64,000 bases of DNA from positions 34,269-98,268 of IMG/VR virus record IMGVR_UViG_3300025121_000030; one strand, written 5' to 3'. The stretch is from a virus. Position 1 is the stretch's first letter. Every line of letters begins with the position of its first letter. The notes under the pieces were generated by a model. That model saw nothing but the letters and a program-made list of their open reading frames with translations, ran no database searches and was not told the origin of the DNA. Positions 7,541 to 38,305 of this stretch are shown piece by piece. Both the position numbers and the translations under genes were made by a program.

Positions 7541-8776
7541 TTGAGTTTTTCTGATATTGTAAATAGTTATAAGTCAAGATTATCTATTGATGGATTAACT
7601 ATTAGGGATGAATATATTAATTCTATTACAGATAGTTTTACTGATAGTTTTGATTACAATGTAAGTTATAAAGAAGTTTCTTATAAAAAAAGGAATGAAT
7701 TAAATTATACTACTGGTGTAAAGATACATGTATTTCAGGCTAAGAAAGATACTGAGAAAATTGCGCTTGATGATGTGAAACGAGTAGTTTTTAAGGATTT
7801 AGATTTTGTGTGTGAATCTGGTGATTTATTACAATTTGATAGTAATACGTGGTTAGTAACGTCAACAAATAATATAGATCATATAAAAAGTTGTGTAGTG
7901 CAACAATGTAATAATAATTTAAAGTTTGTTAAAAATCATATTTCATATACAATTCCATGTGTAATTTCAACAGTTGGAAACAGTATGGGGCTAGGTATTG
8001 ATGAAATGAAATATGTTTCCGATATTGATGATTTTATTATAGTAAGAGTTGTTAACAATGTGGATTCTCAATTAATTTCAATTAATGATATATTTAAACT
8101 TGGGAACAAATGGAATTGGAGAGTAGAAAATATATCTGATGTAATTGATAATGGTATATTAGTACTTAAACTCAAGTGGGTTGCTGAGAGTGCTGAAAGT
8201 GCTAACTATGTATTGACAATCACCAATGGAAATTCGCTACAAATTGGCAGAACGCAACCATTAACTATTAATGCAGAATTAAAAGATAATGATATAGTTG
8301 TGTCTAGTCCACAACTTACATATTCCAGTTCAAATACAAGTGTGGCTACAATCAACAGCACTACTGGAGTTGTAACAATTTTAACTGCTGATAGTGTTAT
8401 ATTTACTGTCGCTTTAACTTCTGATAATAGTATAAAGGATACTATAAATGTTGAAATAATAGAAAGTACACAAACAAATTATACTTATGAACTTGTGGCA
8501 AATATGCTTCCGAGCAATGAGGTTAAGTACAATCAGACTAAGGTATTTACAGCATCTCGTTACAAAAATGGAGTTTTAGAAACAAGAGTTAACTTTACAT
8601 TTGAGGTCATTCCAGATACGACACCAACAAATAAATATGAATTTCTAACACTCACAGGGAATACAACATCTTTGAAAGCACTTGGATATAGCTATTTCGT
8701 GGATTTAAAAGCTACTGATGTGGAATTTCCAACGAATAGTGTGCAGGTTAATGTTAAGTTGAGGTCAGTATTGTAA
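7541..8776 (+). CDS. Head closure protein with C-terminal Ig-like domains
   Basis: GDLL..WLV..CNNNLKF core; YSSSNTSVATINSTTGVVT Big_2-like motif. Confidence 0.65.
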   Translation: MSFSDIVNSYKSRLSIDGLTIRDEYINSITDSFTDSFDYNVSYKEVSYKKRNELNYTTGVKIHVFQAKKDTEKIALDDVKRVVFKDLDFVCESGDLLQFDSNTWLVTSTNNIDHIKSCVVQQCNNNLKFVKNHISYTIPCVISTVGNSMGLGIDEMKYVSDIDDFIIVRVVNNVDSQLISINDIFKLGNKWNWRVENISDVIDNGILVLKLKWVAESAESANYVLTITNGNSLQIGRTQPLTINAELKDNDIVVSSPQLTYSSSNTSVATINSTTGVVTILTADSVIFTVALTSDNSIKDTINVEIIESTQTNYTYELVANMLPSNEVKYNQTKVFTASRYKNGVLETRVNFTFEVIPDTTPTNKYEFLTLTGNTTSLKALGYSYFVDLKATDVEFPTNSVQVNVKLRSVL

Positions 8777-8785
8777 GGAGAATGT

Positions 8786-8944
8786 ATGAAAATATTTAAT
8801 ATTGAACAGGCAGACGTTTTTATTAAACATGGTGCAATTCCTATAAGTTGTGGTTTAGGAAATAAATGCAAAACTTATATTGAGTTTGAAGAAAATCAAA
8901 TATTTAAAGAATTATTAAAAAAGTGGTTAAATAGAGAAATTTAA
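8786..8944 (+). CDS. Small hypothetical protein, 52 aa (not in ORF track)
   Basis: RBS aaggag; MKIFNIEQADVFIKHGAIPISCGLGNKCKTYIEFEENQIFKELLKKWLNREI*. Confidence 0.6.
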   Translation: MKIFNIEQADVFIKHGAIPISCGLGNKCKTYIEFEENQIFKELLKKWLNREI

Positions 8945-8988
8945 TTACTTATTTTTATATTTCAAAGATTAAAGGAGGATTAATATTT

Positions 8989-10311
8989 ATGGGATTGATA
9001 AATGAAACAGTGTTAGTTAAGATGAATGGGGTAAATACAAAACATTATGAAAATTTAGGATATATAATTCCGAAGAAAAAACATTCTCAACGAAAAAATA
9101 TTTTAGTATATGATACTACAAACCCCATATTGGTAAAAATTGAAGATTTATTAGATAATAGTCATGCTTTAGTAAATATTGAATGTGATGATTGTGGGAG
9201 AAAAATAGAAAATGTTATATGGCAAGCATATAAAAGATATGTTGGAGAAAATGGTGTATATTATTGTCAAAAATGTGCCAATAAATTATTTAGAAGACCA
9301 ACATATAAAAAAACTAAATTAAAAAACAGCAAATCTTTTGAGCAATGGTGTATTGAAAATAATAAACAGGATATTCTTTTACGTTGGGATTATGAATTAA
9401 ATGATTGCAAGCACAGTGAAATTACATATGGGGTGGATAAAAAATATTATTTTAAATGCCCAATGGGAATACATAAAAGCGAATTAAAACAAATTAATTG
9501 TTTAACAAGTGGACAAGAAGGAAGTATGGATTGTAAACTATGTAATTCCTTTGCTCAATGGGGAATTGATAATTTAGGCGTTGATTTCTTCGAGAAGTAT
9601 TGGGATTGTGAGAAAAATACAATTAATCCTTGGGATATAAGTAAATGTAATAATACAAGAAAAGTTTGGATAAGATGTCAAGAAAAAAAATATCATAATA
9701 ATTATGATATAAGTTGTTATCGATTTATTATGGGTGACAGATGTTCTTATTGTAGTAAACGTGGAGGCAAGGTACATTCATTAGATAGCTTAGGTACATT
9801 ATTTCCAAAATCTTTAGAATTATGGTCTGATAAAAATAAAAAATCGCCATATGAGTATGCACCTAAAAGTGATAAAGAAGTATATTGGAAATGTCCTAAT
9901 GGAAAACATGATGATTATATTAGAGATATTTGTAATTCTAATAAATGTGATTTTAGATGCCCAGAGTGTGCATATTCCAAAGGTGAAGAAAGAATTAGTA
10001 ATTATTTTATAAATAAAAATATAAACTATATTCCACAAAAAGAATTTGATGGTTTAGTTGGATTAAACAATGGTTTATTATCTTATGATTTTTATTTACC
10101 AGAATATGGTCTTATAGAATATCAAGGCGAACAACATGAGAGATATATAAAAGGTTTCCATAAGTCAAAAAAGGATTTTGAAAAACAATTAGAGCATGAT
10201 AGAAGAAAAAGACAATATTGTGTTGATAACAATATAAAATTATTAGAAATTTGGTATTATGACTTTGACAACATCGAATCTATTCTTCAAAGAGAATTAA
10301 ATTTACAATAA
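8989..10311 (+). CDS. Homing endonuclease-like protein (repeated Zn-ribbon modules, C-terminal PD-(D/E)XK/Vsr-like nuclease)
   Basis: WDYELN/VYWKC..H/CPEC repeats; SKGE..I, LSYDFYLP..LIEYQGEQH, LLEIWY motifs. Confidence 0.8.
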   Translation: MGLINETVLVKMNGVNTKHYENLGYIIPKKKHSQRKNILVYDTTNPILVKIEDLLDNSHALVNIECDDCGRKIENVIWQAYKRYVGENGVYYCQKCANKLFRRPTYKKTKLKNSKSFEQWCIENNKQDILLRWDYELNDCKHSEITYGVDKKYYFKCPMGIHKSELKQINCLTSGQEGSMDCKLCNSFAQWGIDNLGVDFFEKYWDCEKNTINPWDISKCNNTRKVWIRCQEKKYHNNYDISCYRFIMGDRCSYCSKRGGKVHSLDSLGTLFPKSLELWSDKNKKSPYEYAPKSDKEVYWKCPNGKHDDYIRDICNSNKCDFRCPECAYSKGEERISNYFINKNINYIPQKEFDGLVGLNNGLLSYDFYLPEYGLIEYQGEQHERYIKGFHKSKKDFEKQLEHDRRKRQYCVDNNIKLLEIWYYDFDNIESILQRELNLQ

Positions 10312-34093: not shown

Positions 34094-34294
34094 ATGGTTT
34101 ATCTTTGCCCTATAAATTATGGGATGATAAATATATTATTAGTTATGTTAGTAGTATTGTTAATTTTTAATCAATGGATTATATATTTTTTGTTAAAAAG
34201 ACATACACAAAAATATTTTGATTGGTTAATTGAAGAAGAAAGAACAACTCAACAAATGTTATTATTACAAAACAAAAATAAAAAGAAAGGGTGA
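34094..34294 (+). CDS. Small membrane protein
   Basis: One long hydrophobic segment and a charged helical tail; start uncertain. Confidence 0.5.
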   Translation: MVYLCPINYGMINILLVMLVVLLIFNQWIIYFLLKRHTQKYFDWLIEEERTTQQMLLLQNKNKKKG

Positions 34295-34307
34295 ACTGAG
34301 ATTATGG

Positions 34308-34682
34308 ATGGATAAAGTTTTTCATAATTTATTAAAGGATAATTTAGATTCAGTTTTAGAGATGAATGAACAATACTTTGGTAATATGCGATTGAATGTA
34401 TTGTATTCATATGAAAGGAATGAATTAACTGGATTATATGAAGATGTTCCAAATGAATTGGAAATCTGCCATAATGCTAACCGATATATTGTTTTTCATA
34501 AAGAAAAAGATGATCTGCTCTATCTCAAGCATTTTAATTTTAGCCAAAATCCTAAGGGCAAGGAAAAGTTTCATATAGAATCCAGAAATTTCCATAATTA
34601 CTTTCAGGTTTTAAAATGGGTGTCTTCAAATCATAAATTTGAACCTAGTAAAAAGAAAAGTATTTTTGATTTGTTAAAATAA
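34308..34682 (+). CDS. Hypothetical soluble protein, paralog of 35118..35459
   Basis: Probable ATG at 34308; LLYL...N...NPKGKEKFH.....W motif. Confidence 0.55.
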   Translation: MDKVFHNLLKDNLDSVLEMNEQYFGNMRLNVLYSYERNELTGLYEDVPNELEICHNANRYIVFHKEKDDLLYLKHFNFSQNPKGKEKFHIESRNFHNYFQVLKWVSSNHKFEPSKKKSIFDLLK

Positions 34683-34707: not shown

Positions 34708-34736
34708 TTGACATCCCTCCTTTCTTACTATATAAT
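34708..34736 (+). promoter_or_regulatory. SigA-type promoter with an anti-SD sequence in its spacer
   Basis: TTGACA-17-TATAAT; spacer cctcctttctt is complementary to aagaaaggagg (34744-54). Confidence 0.85.
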
Positions 34737-34765: not shown

Positions 34766-35110
34766 TTGAAAGATTGTAAAAAGATAGTTAATGTTTTTAA
34801 TTTAACTATAATTATTAGTTTGATTGTTGTAATTTGTCTTATATATTTTGGAAGAGACTATTATTATCAAGCTAGACTTATTTTTGAAAGTGATCAATTT
34901 CTTTTCTTCTGTTTATTTTTTTGTTTGGTTTTATGGATGTTTATATTTTTAGCATATCAAGGGACTCAACTTAAAAAAGATAATGTAATTATAAAAGAAT
35001 TACTACAAATGATATTACAAGAAAATTATTTAACCCAGGACAATTTAGAAAAACTTCATAGAAACACCAGACAATTAATTATGTCTGAGATTTCTAAAAG
35101 AAAGGGTTAA
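34766..35110 (+). CDS. Two-TM membrane protein with cytoplasmic coiled coil
   Basis: RBS aaggagg; two hydrophobic helices, then a helical tail. Confidence 0.65.
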   Translation: MKDCKKIVNVFNLTIIISLIVVICLIYFGRDYYYQARLIFESDQFLFFCLFFCLVLWMFIFLAYQGTQLKKDNVIIKELLQMILQENYLTQDNLEKLHRNTRQLIMSEISKRKG

Positions 35111-35117
35111 ATATATT

Positions 35118-35459
35118 GTGAAAAATTCACTGTGGTATTCTAGGAATTGTTTAAATGAGAAAAATTTAGACTATATTGAAAATACTTTATGTGAGCCAAA
35201 TAATATTAATATAAGAATAATGGCTGATAAAAGCGGTGAAGATATTTTACTATTGACATATAAATTAGATACATATAAAGTTGAAATTGATAGATGTTGT
35301 TTATTATCATTGAGTAAACGTAATAAAGCATTAAATCCTAAGTATAAAGAATATTATCATTTGTTAGATAAATTTGAAGGTTTAGATTGTTGGGCAGATT
35401 TGATATTATGGATTGTGAGGAATAAAAATGGAAAAATTAATGATGACATGGATATTTAG
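35118..35459 (+). CDS. Hypothetical soluble protein, paralog of 34308..34682
   Basis: LLSL...N...NPKYKEYYH.....W motif. Confidence 0.55.
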   Translation: MKNSLWYSRNCLNEKNLDYIENTLCEPNNINIRIMADKSGEDILLLTYKLDTYKVEIDRCCLLSLSKRNKALNPKYKEYYHLLDKFEGLDCWADLILWIVRNKNGKINDDMDI

Positions 35460-35874
35460 TAGTTTACTAACGGCATATATGTCAGTATTATTTATGGTAT
35501 CAATTGTAAATATAAAAATATCTAAAAAACAATGGATAATTTTAATTTTATCATTGTCTTTATGTCATACAATATTTAGAAATATAATACCACAATTATT
35601 TTTCCCATTTTTATTTATAATAATGTATTCTTCATTAATTTATACAATTGTATTAAATGTAAAATTAATAAAGACATTAAAATTTTCTATTTTATTTTTT
35701 GTTTTTCTTTTAATTACTGAAGTAATAATTGTTGTTTTATTAAATATATTTTTAGATGTAGATTTGTCTAAAGTTTCTTTTGGAATAAAAGAATATATTT
35801 TAGCACTTCCCGTATATTTTGTTCAAATATATTTAGTAATATTAATGAAAAAATATATAAAAAAAAAGGAATGA
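35428..35874 (+). CDS. Multi-pass membrane protein resembling an AgrC-type sensor domain, without kinase domain
   Basis: 148 aa, about 5 TM helices, directly upstream of the peptide gene and agrB; no H-box or GHKL domain. Confidence 0.6.
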   Translation: MEKLMMTWIFSSLLTAYMSVLFMVSIVNIKISKKQWIILILSLSLCHTIFRNIIPQLFFPFLFIIMYSSLIYTIVLNVKLIKTLKFSILFFVFLLITEVIIVVLLNIFLDVDLSKVSFGIKEYILALPVYFVQIYLVILMKKYIKKKE

Positions 35875-35928: not shown

Positions 35929-36012
35929 ATGGGTGGTTTCTATTTTGGTAAACCTGCGAAAGTAAACACTCAAAAGCAAACTGAAACTAAAAAAGAAGAA
36001 GTAAAAAAGTAA
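35929..36012 (+). CDS. Leaderless AgrD-like precursor peptide, 27 aa (not in ORF track)
   Basis: Strong RBS aaggaggtg; MGGFYFGKPAKVNTQKQTETKKEEVKK*; aromatic pentapeptide + xxP + charged tail; adjacent to agrB. Confidence 0.7.
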   Translation: MGGFYFGKPAKVNTQKQTETKKEEVKK

Positions 36013-36072: not shown

Positions 36073-36102
36073 AGGGGCTATCCATATCGGGTAGTCCTTT
36101 TT
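36073..36102 (+). terminator. Terminator/attenuator between the peptide gene and agrB
   Basis: aggggctatcc/gggtagtcctt stem followed by a T-run. Confidence 0.7.
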
Positions 36103-36142: not shown

Positions 36143-36706
36143 ATGTTTTTTGACACAATTAGCAACTATATATTATGCAAGTTAATTAAAAGTGGAAAAT
36201 TAACATATGATCAATATGACGAAATAGATTATAAGATAAAAAGTTATTTAAGTTTATTCCTAATTATATTATTTACAGTATTATTAGGAATTATACTTAA
36301 TTGTTTATTACAATCAATAGTAGTGTTGATTATTATCGGAGTATTAAGAATTTTTAGTGGGGGAGTTCATGCAAAAAGTTTGGAGAGTTGTACTTTTTTA
36401 TCCACGATTTACATGAGTTTTTTAGCATATTTAACATTGTATTTATACCAACAAACTATGTTGGTATTTTTTATTAGCATTTTCACATCTGTATTTATAA
36501 TTAAGTTTATACCGACAATAGATGAAGATGAAAAGAAATATAAAAATAAATATTATCGGAATAATTATATAAATTATTTTTTATTGTTTTATAGTATAGG
36601 TGCTGTTTGTGTGTTTATTGATACATATGTAAGCAATTTAGTATGTTGTTCAATATCGTTAGCTATGATTGGTACGGCTTTGACTGTGAGAGAAAATAAA
36701 AATTAA
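36143..36706 (+). CDS. agrB: Accessory gene regulator B family peptide-cyclising membrane protease
   Basis: LRIFSGGVHAKSLESC gives R69/H76/C83, matching S. aureus R70/H77/C84 spacing; 187 aa, multi-TM; FIP motif. Confidence 0.88.
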   Translation: MFFDTISNYILCKLIKSGKLTYDQYDEIDYKIKSYLSLFLIILFTVLLGIILNCLLQSIVVLIIIGVLRIFSGGVHAKSLESCTFLSTIYMSFLAYLTLYLYQQTMLVFFISIFTSVFIIKFIPTIDEDEKKYKNKYYRNNYINYFLLFYSIGAVCVFIDTYVSNLVCCSISLAMIGTALTVRENKN

Positions 36707-36841: not shown

Positions 36842-38305
36842 TTGGGATTGGTAAGTACAGAAGTTTGGGTTGGTTTAAATGGAAGTAGTATTAAACATTT
36901 TGAAGAAAAGGGATATGAAATACCTAGATATAAAAATAAAAATAGCAAATTATGTGTTAAAGAACATACAAAAATATTAGTAAAAATTAAAGATTTATCA
37001 GAACATAGTAATGTCAAAGTTGATGTAGAATGTGACGGATGTGGTAAAAAATTAAAAAACGTAGTATGGCAGGATTATTTAAAACGTATTGTTAAAAATG
37101 ATGGTAAATATTATTGTTTACAATGTGCAACTAAGGATAATGGAATTCAAACTAGACTTAAAGAAAATGAAATCAGAAATATAGTAGATGAAAAACTAGG
37201 AAAAGATTGGATAATAGAAAAAATTGAAATAATAAAAAATAATACGTTTATAACTTTAATTGACCCTGATGGATATTGGTATAGCAATGTAAAAACACGA
37301 GTTATAAAAAGAGACATATTCCCTAGAAAATTTCATTTACAAAATATATATGCAAAACAAAATGTGAATAATTGGTTTAAATTAAATAATTTGAATATGA
37401 AATTAATTGAAGAATACAAAGGAACAACCAAAAAAGTTAAAATTAAATGCTTAGAATGCAATAATTCTTTTAAACGCTCATTCGATAGTATTAAAAGTGG
37501 AATAACATCGTGTCCAAATTGTAGTGATGGTATTAGTTACCCGGAAAAATTAGGGAATTCATTTTTTAATCAAATAGGTATTAATTATATTTATAATTCT
37601 AAATTAAAATGGTCTGAAAATAAAAAATATGATTTTACATGTGAAGGCTTTAAAATTGTGGTTGAAATGCATGGTTTACAACATTATGAAGAAACCAATT
37701 GGGGGAATACGGGTGCAAGAACTTTAAAAGAAGAACAAGAAAGCGATAGATTAAAAAAAGAATTAGCAGAGAAAAATGGATATAAATATATAGAAATTGA
37801 TTGTAGAAAATCAGATTTAGATTGGATAAAGAATAGTATTATGAATAGTGAATTAGCTAATATATTTGATTTATCTAAAATAAATTGGTTACAATGTCAT
37901 GAATATGCTTGTAGTAGTTTGGTTAAAGTAGCATGTGATTTGTGGAATAATTGTGTAGAAAACACAATGAAAATTGGGGAAATAATGCAATTACATAATT
38001 CCACCATTTCAAAATATTTAAAACAAGGTGTAAAATTAGGTTGGTGTGATTACAATGTAAAAAAAATAAAAAATAATAATGGTAAAAAAATTAGTAATTT
38101 TGCAAAAATAAAATTTAGTAAGTCAGTAGTTCAATTAGATTTAAATGATAATTTTATTAAAGAATTTGAAAGTGGTACAGAAGCAGGAAGACAAACAGGA
38201 ATAAAGCAAGCTACCATTTCTTTATGTTGTAGAAAAGCTCCTCATGCAAAAACGGCAGGTGGATATAAATGGATGTTTAAGAATGATTATAATTTAATTA
38301 GTTAA
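36842..38305 (+). CDS. Homing endonuclease-like protein (paralog of 333..1991)
   Basis: Same N-terminal Zn ribbon; ISYPEK, KYDF..VVEMHGLQHY, IDCRKS motifs; NUMOD1-like C-terminus. Confidence 0.8.
   Translation: MGLVSTEVWVGLNGSSIKHFEEKGYEIPRYKNKNSKLCVKEHTKILVKIKDLSEHSNVKVDVECDGCGKKLKNVVWQDYLKRIVKNDGKYYCLQCATKDNGIQTRLKENEIRNIVDEKLGKDWIIEKIEIIKNNTFITLIDPDGYWYSNVKTRVIKRDIFPRKFHLQNIYAKQNVNNWFKLNNLNMKLIEEYKGTTKKVKIKCLECNNSFKRSFDSIKSGITSCPNCSDGISYPEKLGNSFFNQIGINYIYNSKLKWSENKKYDFTCEGFKIVVEMHGLQHYEETNWGNTGARTLKEEQESDRLKKELAEKNGYKYIEIDCRKSDLDWIKNSIMNSELANIFDLSKINWLQCHEYACSSLVKVACDLWNNCVENTMKIGEIMQLHNSTISKYLKQGVKLGWCDYNVKKIKNNNGKKISNFAKIKFSKSVVQLDLNDNFIKEFESGTEAGRQTGIKQATISLCCRKAPHAKTAGGYKWMFKNDYNLIS

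Follow-up and report, generated by a model that had tools for sequence, protein, structure and literature searches.

What does a phage gain from membrane proteins that resemble part of a peptide receptor, encoded beside a small peptide gene and agrB, when no receptor kinase is found with them? The locus that raises this question lies in a 64,000-nucleotide (nt) stretch of viral DNA (positions 34,269 to 98,268 of IMG/VR record IMGVR_UViG_3300025121_000030; hereafter the window), which forms the 3' end (64 kb) of a record of 98,268 bp estimated to be 66% complete. An earlier note on this DNA had proposed that two proteins of 148 and 114 amino acids (aa), encoded between 34766 and 35874, resemble the sensor part and the transmembrane (TM)/linker part of AgrC-type histidine kinases and might form a kinase-less or split receptor. 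Profile and structure comparisons indicate that the 148-aa protein very probably belongs, as a diverged member, to a family that shares ancestry with TM1-5 of the AgrC sensor, and that the likeness of the 114-aa protein to TM6-7 and the linker of AgrC is suggestive.

AlphaFold2 models the 148-aa protein as five long helices that fill the whole chain and leave no other domain (predicted local distance difference test [pLDDT] 85, predicted template modeling score [pTM] 0.78), in keeping with its earlier description as membrane-only. Loop charges point to an N-out/C-in topology, and the modeled chain ends directly after TM5. No model in Pfam, NCBIfam, PHROG or PADLOC matches the protein, including the phosphoacceptor-type families HisKA and SPOB_a; for the cassette as a whole, AgrB is the sole PHROG match and PADLOC gave none. 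Searches for HATPase_c_5, HATPase_c, LytTR and Response_reg found nothing across the entire 98,268-bp record, so that the statement that the window holds no histidine kinase or response regulator now extends to the whole record as available. HATPase_c_5 and LytTR were also without a match in a related phage record of 148.7 kb (L002; 76% complete).

Sequence searches placed the 148-aa protein in a sparse neighborhood. A phmmer search of 1.84 billion representative sequences returned eight relatives of 96-167 aa, all metagenomic and none fused to a kinase, and no longer, fused homologues appeared among 5.8 billion proteins, which is weak evidence. Searches of the phage collection by DNA and by protein gave zero matches, as did most scans of contigs from viruses, metagenomes and genomes in which the query was one protein or a small alignment. 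Searches of the Protein Data Bank by sequence, by Foldseek and by VIA-align in wide mode retrieved generic helical bundles and no AgrC-type sensor structure. A structure search of the ESM Atlas was more specific: the nearest structures were N-terminal domains of PF14501 (AgrC/NatK-type) kinases, with template modeling scores normalized by the query of 0.65-0.82, and a cluster named "AgrC (fragment)" was also returned.

Profile comparison carried this resemblance to the level of sequence. When a 36-member family alignment was compared by hhalign with nine AgrC kinases from agr loci, the probability was 95.9-96.5% (E 1e-9 to 6e-9), and family positions 2-154 aligned with AgrC 1-151, collinearly, over the full length and from the first residue of AgrC. 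The phage/metagenome subfamily alone reached 89.7% (E 2e-6) against the same kinases. Controls fell far below these values, at 1% for reversed AgrC and 0.4-3.8% for HATPase_c_5 kinases located away from agrB. Hidden Markov models (HMMs) gave a concordant picture in a sample of 30 loci with HATPase_c_5 kinases, in which the N-terminal 200 aa of 40 kinases were scored: the top six scores of the 36-member family HMM all belonged to agrB-adjacent kinases, the best three at 23.8, 19.5 and 10.0 bits, and the maximum among 239 reversed or shuffled sequences was 6.4 bits. These results lead us to assign the 148-aa protein to a family homologous to the AgrC sensor. In the reverse direction, an HMM built from bacterial members only scored the window protein at 19 bits (E 5e-8). 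The profile made from phage sequences only, run on 399 genomes of the clostridial class, gave two weak matches covering nearly the full profile, both at the N-termini of agr-locus HATPase_c_5 kinases (444 and 449 aa); its remaining weak matches were partial and fell on unrelated transporters (E 0.003-0.06). Two residues are nearly invariant across the 36 members, Glu98 in TM4 (35/36) and Pro128 in TM5 (36/36).

The same phage-only profile also detected two clear stand-alone genes directly upstream of agrB. At one of these loci (L025; E 8e-10), a 158-aa five-TM protein, AgrB and a canonical AgrD are encoded in that order; the other (L026:945-2660) has three tandem five-TM paralogues of 149 aa each ahead of a single agrB. 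With bacterial members added, the profile matched in 150 of 294 genomes of the Clostridium order, in frames of about 150-190 aa. The bacterial members are 145-162 aa long, the window protein is about 20-25% identical to them, and the family is without a model in Pfam or NCBIfam. In 20 sampled loci from as many genomes, the five-TM gene lay directly upstream of agrB on the same strand every time, and a canonical AgrD (...SAC-x4-YQPEEPKCLREE) followed agrB every time. At the 18 single-pair loci measured, the distance from the five-TM gene to the agrB start ranged from a 52-nt overlap to a 3-nt gap. A detector HMM of moderate sensitivity found no kinase within 3 kb of 22 such loci, and nine agr loci with a full AgrC had no stand-alone five-TM copy beside agrB.

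These loci apparently include the agr operon of Clostridium perfringens, whose autoinducing peptide (AIP) is [CLWFT] (PMC12312760). There, CPE1563, CPE1562, agrB and agrD are co-transcribed and the two upstream reading frames are annotated as hypothetical (PMC2706048); the operon is stated to encode no AgrC homologue (PMC2706048, PMC7492741). Three genomes have the C. perfringens AgrD, and in each of them the gene before agrB, in the position of CPE1562, belongs to the five-TM family (E 5e-48); species were assigned here from AgrD sequences, and the equation with CPE1562 is drawn from position. A stand-alone kinase-less sensor gene is the usual third gene of kinase-less clostridial agr operons, and it is neither a phage peculiarity nor the product of a recent split. 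The earlier note had held that its proposal would fall if there were no structural similarity to HPK10 sensor domains and no co-occurrence with agrB in other genomes. We find the similarity, by hhalign with its controls and in the ESM Atlas structures, and we find the family beside agrB in every locus examined (two phages, 22 bacterial loci and three C. perfringens-type loci); neither ground for rejecting the proposal therefore holds.

Other features recur around the bacterial genes. A gene for a DUF5317 membrane protein often lies 5' of the five-TM gene. At five loci (L040, L046, L052, L054 and L058), the order is DUF5317 protein, five-TM protein, AgrB, AgrD and a protein of 560-590 aa, in which an N-terminal multi-TM domain and a GGDEF-like motif can be read by eye. 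Judged from these sequence features, this last protein could be an output or receptor of kinase-less agr loci. Two further loci (L056 and L057) contain two five-TM-agrB-agrD sets about 6.8 kb apart, with a lone five-TM copy between them. The AgrDs of such two-set loci resemble those listed for Clostridium botulinum (PMC12312760), and the family apparently extends to C. botulinum-type loci as well.

In the window, which has a GC content of about 27% and carries all of its genes on the plus strand, the five-TM gene belongs to a cassette situated between tail-fibre genes. The cassette and its neighbors are as follows.

34094-34294, plus strand: one-TM protein, 66 aa (from the list of open reading frames [ORFs])
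34305-34682, plus strand: soluble protein, 125 aa (ORF list)
34708..34736, plus strand: sigma-70-type promoter ahead of the cassette, TTGACA-17 nt-TATAAT (12/12 consensus positions match)
34766..35110, plus strand: 114-aa protein, two TM segments followed by a helical cytoplasmic tail (ORF and ribosome-binding site [RBS])
35118..35459, plus strand: soluble protein, 113 aa, fold unassigned (ORF; translationally linked to both neighbors)
35428..35874, plus strand: 148-aa five-TM protein, very probably a stand-alone, kinase-less homologue of the AgrC sensor (TM1-5), CPE1562-type family (model, structural look-alikes and hhalign)
35929..36012, plus strand: leaderless peptide gene, 27 aa, MGGFYF-GKP-basic tail (strong RBS AAAGGAGG, then ATG)
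36073..36099, plus strand: terminator-like hairpin between the peptide gene and agrB (11-bp stem, then a T run)
36143..36706, plus strand: AgrB, 187 aa, with the R/H/C catalytic motif (PF04647, E 2e-22)
36842-38305, plus strand: homing-endonuclease-like gene downstream of agrB (NUMOD1 and a treble-clef zinc finger)

The agrB start thus lies about 270 nt (269) 3' of the 148-aa gene on the same strand, with the peptide gene and the hairpin between them.

The whole cassette is present, in the same order, in the related phage L002: promoter, two-TM protein, soluble protein, five-TM protein, leaderless M-x5-GKP peptide, terminator and agrB. Identities to the window proteins are similar throughout, at 31% for the two-TM protein (124 aa), 33% for the soluble protein (118 aa), 33% for the five-TM protein (162 aa) and 34% for the AgrB-like protein, which scores 29.6 bits in Pfam. 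The consensus promoter, TTGACA-17-TATAAT, also precedes the two-TM gene of L002; a LytTR-operator-like repeat upstream of the window cassette has no counterpart there. AgrB residues R69, H76 and C83 are conserved between the two phages. In the L002 AgrB (8593-9126), the R..GG.H......C motif is interrupted, between its GG and the catalytic His, by an acidic insertion of six residues; the protein nonetheless clears the Pfam cut-off. The two phages differ in where homing-endonuclease-like genes sit beside the cassette, 3' of agrB in the window (36842-38305) and upstream in L002 (L002:4833-7209, together with a KilAC/ANT antirepressor gene), which marks the borders of the cassette as insertion hot spots.

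The peptide gene is unusual. AgrD precursors have an N-terminal amphipathic leader, a Cys or Ser five residues before the cleavage site and an acidic P-x-x-P tail. The 27-aa peptide has no leader, no Cys or Ser before GKP and a basic tail; it matches no Pfam or NCBIfam model and does not qualify as an AgrD (PF05931). Its L002 homologue, at about 8471-8539, is a 22-aa peptide of the form MFWLLF-GKP-basic tail with the same RBS, and DNA alignment shows its gene overlapping the 3' end of the five-TM gene in another frame. A third family member, P0005, carries MVLILW-GKPVKK in frame, and in all three members in which this region can be read (the window, L002 and P0005) a leaderless M-x5-GKP gene directly follows the five-TM gene. 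For P0004, P0006 and P0008, the protein tail "KW" fits AA-ATG-G, the start codon of such a peptide gene, as read back from the protein sequence. A DNA pattern for the peptide gene matched the L002 contig alone, apart from unrelated zinc-ribbon genes. We had considered that the long C-terminal tails of P0004-P0008 were an AgrD-like peptide fused to the five-TM protein, which the DNA alignment ruled out: the tail is spurious and arises where the five-TM frame continues across the RBS (AAAGGAGG, read K-R-R) into the start of the overlapping peptide gene. Automatic gene calls accordingly give five-TM homologues false C-terminal tails (..KRRN..) from the wrong-frame RBS and peptide gene. The hairpin that follows the peptide gene is conserved in sequence in both phages (window 36073-36099; L002 about 8545-8572), a conservation that suggests high levels of peptide mRNA with partial read-through into agrB.

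The two proteins encoded ahead of the five-TM protein are less readily placed. As described earlier, the 114-aa protein has two hydrophobic segments followed by a charged helical tail, which contains the sequence ...LEKLHRNTRQL. Only one relative of it was found, the two-TM protein (124 aa) from L002 (31% identity, E 1e-6); a large protein search returned only the query itself and an ESM Atlas search returned nothing, and the protein is specific to these phages. By hhalign, its family aligned with AgrC 147-243 (TM6-7 and the linker, ending just before the H-box) at a probability of 7% (p 0.005) and with residues 153-243 of non-agr HATPase_c_5 kinases at 18% (p 0.0013), both sub-significant; reversed controls gave p 0.33. 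The N-terminus of LiaS (NCBIfam) matched weakly (E 3e-4, 20 bits against a cut-off of 450). In the alignment with its one homologue, His97 of the 114-aa protein stands opposite an Asn in L002, and the protein therefore has no conserved H-box. The 113-aa protein has a homologue in L002 (33% identity, E 9e-11), no match in the family libraries searched, including Pfam, NCBIfam, PHROGs and PADLOC, and an AlphaFold2 model too poor to use (pLDDT 49).

The 113-aa protein is also weakly similar to the 125-aa protein encoded upstream of the cassette. That protein and its one-TM neighbor form a pair that is kept in both phages (66/67-aa one-TM and 125/131-aa soluble proteins; window 34094-34682, L002:4090-4715), and the 125/131-aa proteins share R-N, D, N and K...H positions with the 113/118-aa proteins. 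In L002, where the pair encodes proteins of 67 and 131 aa, homing endonuclease and antirepressor genes separate it from the cassette. The shared positions allow that the upstream pair may be a paralogue of the 114/113-aa pair; its membership in the functional unit is uncertain.

What, then, might the five-TM protein do? The reading we favor, to which we give about an even chance, is that it is a phage-borne, kinase-less homologue of the AgrC sensor that binds peptide and acts by protein contacts. A mechanism on the sensing side is a tentative proposal, which we hold at a little short of even. Under it, the 148-aa protein would, like the AgrC sensor, bind a peptide in the membrane, either the product of AgrB or the precursor of that product, and would then have to act through contacts with other proteins, because phosphorylation is impossible without a kinase. 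It might serve as a co-receptor, decoy or blocker of AgrC/VirS-type host kinases; alternatively, it may hand the signal to the 114-aa and 113-aa proteins. In the loci sampled, a full AgrC and a stand-alone five-TM gene show a complementary distribution, which suggests that the five-TM protein supplies membrane peptide binding. Several points weigh on the other side. VirS itself is reported to be the AIP receptor in C. perfringens (PMC7492741), so that a five-TM protein is not needed as the sole sensor there. The homology to AgrC depends on profiles built within this analysis, and neither phmmer nor the search for longer proteins linked the 148-aa protein to kinases; hhalign of the small phage profile against the AgrC of the phage phiCDHM1, a single sequence, likewise gave no match. 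The HMM behind the check for nearby kinases was built from three sequences. Finally, tight coupling to agrB fits a role in peptide production equally well.

That last point leads to the chief competing explanation, in which the five-TM protein is a biogenesis partner that, together with AgrB, holds the precursor or the cyclised product and helps in its release or export, its AgrC-like fold serving only as a peptide-binding scaffold. We regard this as possible, at a likelihood well short of even. The overlapping or abutting of the five-TM stop and the agrB start at all 18 measured bacterial loci is typical of subunits made in a fixed ratio, the phage gene is coupled to the peptide gene itself, and the phage has kept its five-TM gene even though its peptide has no leader to remove. 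The mechanism of AIP export is stated to be unknown (PMC12312760), and in C. perfringens agrBD alone failed to complement where the four-gene operon succeeded, a result that the authors attributed to operon transcription (PMC2706048). However, agr loci with a full AgrC must export AIP too and have no stand-alone five-TM copy beside agrB, and AgrB, AgrD and MroQ of Staphylococcus aureus were sufficient in reconstitution (PMC9388083). A further alternative is disfavored and in our view very improbable: that the five-TM protein is a small membrane protein unrelated to AgrC, which it would resemble in composition, and serves for example in immunity, superinfection exclusion or a holin-like role. 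Hydrophobic bias in the HMM scores is strong, fold searches of the Protein Data Bank gave generic helical bundles only, and the weak profile matches to transporters noted above (E 0.003-0.06) could be read in this way. Yet AgrC far outscores the controls (reversed, shuffled and non-agr kinase sequences), the AgrC matches are collinear over the full length from residue 1 and agree with an independent structure search, strict linkage to agrB would be unexpected of a lysis or exclusion gene, and neither PADLOC nor PHROGs matched the protein.

A true split receptor, in which the 148-aa protein (TM1-5) and the 114-aa protein (TM6-7 and linker helix) would together rebuild a kinase-less AgrC sensor that signals via the 113-aa protein, strikes us as unlikely, and it is here that the two halves of the original proposal part. 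The 148-aa protein emerges as a sensor homologue from both hhalign and the structure search, and the reading of a kinase-less receptor is supported by these comparisons; the TM/linker likeness of the 114-aa protein is sub-significant, its histidine is not conserved and the split-receptor reading is unproven. The arrangement does have its attractions. The alignment of the 114-aa protein (AgrC 147-243) begins directly where that of the 148-aa protein (AgrC 1-151) leaves off, with p values of 0.005 and 0.0013 against 0.33 for reversed controls; the topologies fit, as five TM helices end inside the cell and the two-TM protein starts inside; and the three genes have been kept together in both phages. 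On the other hand, the hhalign probabilities are just 7-18%, an alignment at AgrC 147-243 would be likely for any protein that combines two TM helices with a further helix, the ESM Atlas gave zero matches for the 114-aa protein, and the bacterial members have no two-TM partner, with a DUF5317 gene upstream instead. A further step along this path would be a private peptide-sensing channel, in which the 148-aa and 114-aa proteins would combine into a receptor without a kinase, its ligand being the leaderless, AgrB-processed peptide of the phage itself, and would pass their output through the 113-aa protein rather than a phosphorelay. We consider this improbable too; if true, it would amount to a functional counterpart of arbitrium that uses a membrane receptor, and on a broader view the stand-alone sensor would supply a missing third component of agrBD-only quorum sensing in clostridia.

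Comparison with known systems places the phage protein more precisely. With the clostridial, agrB-adjacent AgrC kinases (HPK10), the 148-aa protein shares a probably homologous N-terminal polytopic sensor (TM1-5), a conserved intramembrane Glu in TM4 and linkage to agrB and a small peptide gene; unlike them, it lacks TM6-7, the linker, the H-box and HATPase_c_5, and no LytTR regulator was found in the phage record. It resembles CPE1562, upstream of agrB in C. perfringens, in size and in five-TM layout, and it matches the profile of the bacterial family to which the gene in that position belongs. The phage cassette differs from CPE1562-type loci in that its peptide gene is leaderless and lies between the five-TM gene and agrB, and in that it has no DUF5317 gene; whereas the bacterial five-TM gene overlaps agrB or comes within 3 nt of it, the phage gene is about 270 nt away.

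Other phages carry comparable modules. The Brevibacillus phages Davies, Emery and Abouo encode AgrB, a small peptide and one or two membrane proteins without an ATPase domain (PMC3901668), and their authors wrote that these membrane proteins "may be homologs of AgrC" (PMC3901668). The gene order in Davies is similar, with membrane proteins followed by agrB, but the membrane proteins measure about 220 aa and agrB precedes the peptide gene. Similarity of Davies gp44 and gp45 to the 148-aa family was not detectable when the small phage profile was compared by hhalign with these single sequences. The agr3 module of the Clostridioides difficile phage phiCDHM1 (agrC-agrB-agrD) is likewise a phage agr module without a response regulator, and its agrC (L003:2902-4263) overlaps the agrB start by 8 nt, which is the upstream, coupled position of the five-TM gene. 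In contrast to the 148-aa protein, the phiCDHM1 AgrC is a full kinase of 453 aa, and its sensor has no detectable similarity to the five-TM family. By analogy with this arrangement, the five-TM gene may have descended from an agrC-agrB-agrD locus through loss of the kinase half. The phage 148-aa protein is a new member of its family, whose relation to AgrC we did not find described in the literature, and the phage cassette is set further apart by its leaderless peptide upstream of agrB and by two extra conserved genes.

Clostridial agrBD loci, including those of C. perfringens and C. botulinum, have been described as lacking an AgrC homologue (PMC7492741), and both the handling of their signal and the exit of AIP from the cell are open questions (PMC12312760). 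Our analysis indicates that, in one clostridial order, half of the searched genomes encode what is probably a conserved kinase-less AgrC sensor domain, translationally coupled to agrB. That a phage lineage has captured the five-TM-agrB module, with an unusual leaderless peptide, shows that these parts are worth carrying for a virus. The five-TM gene provides a directly testable hypothesis for a third component of clostridial agr quorum sensing.

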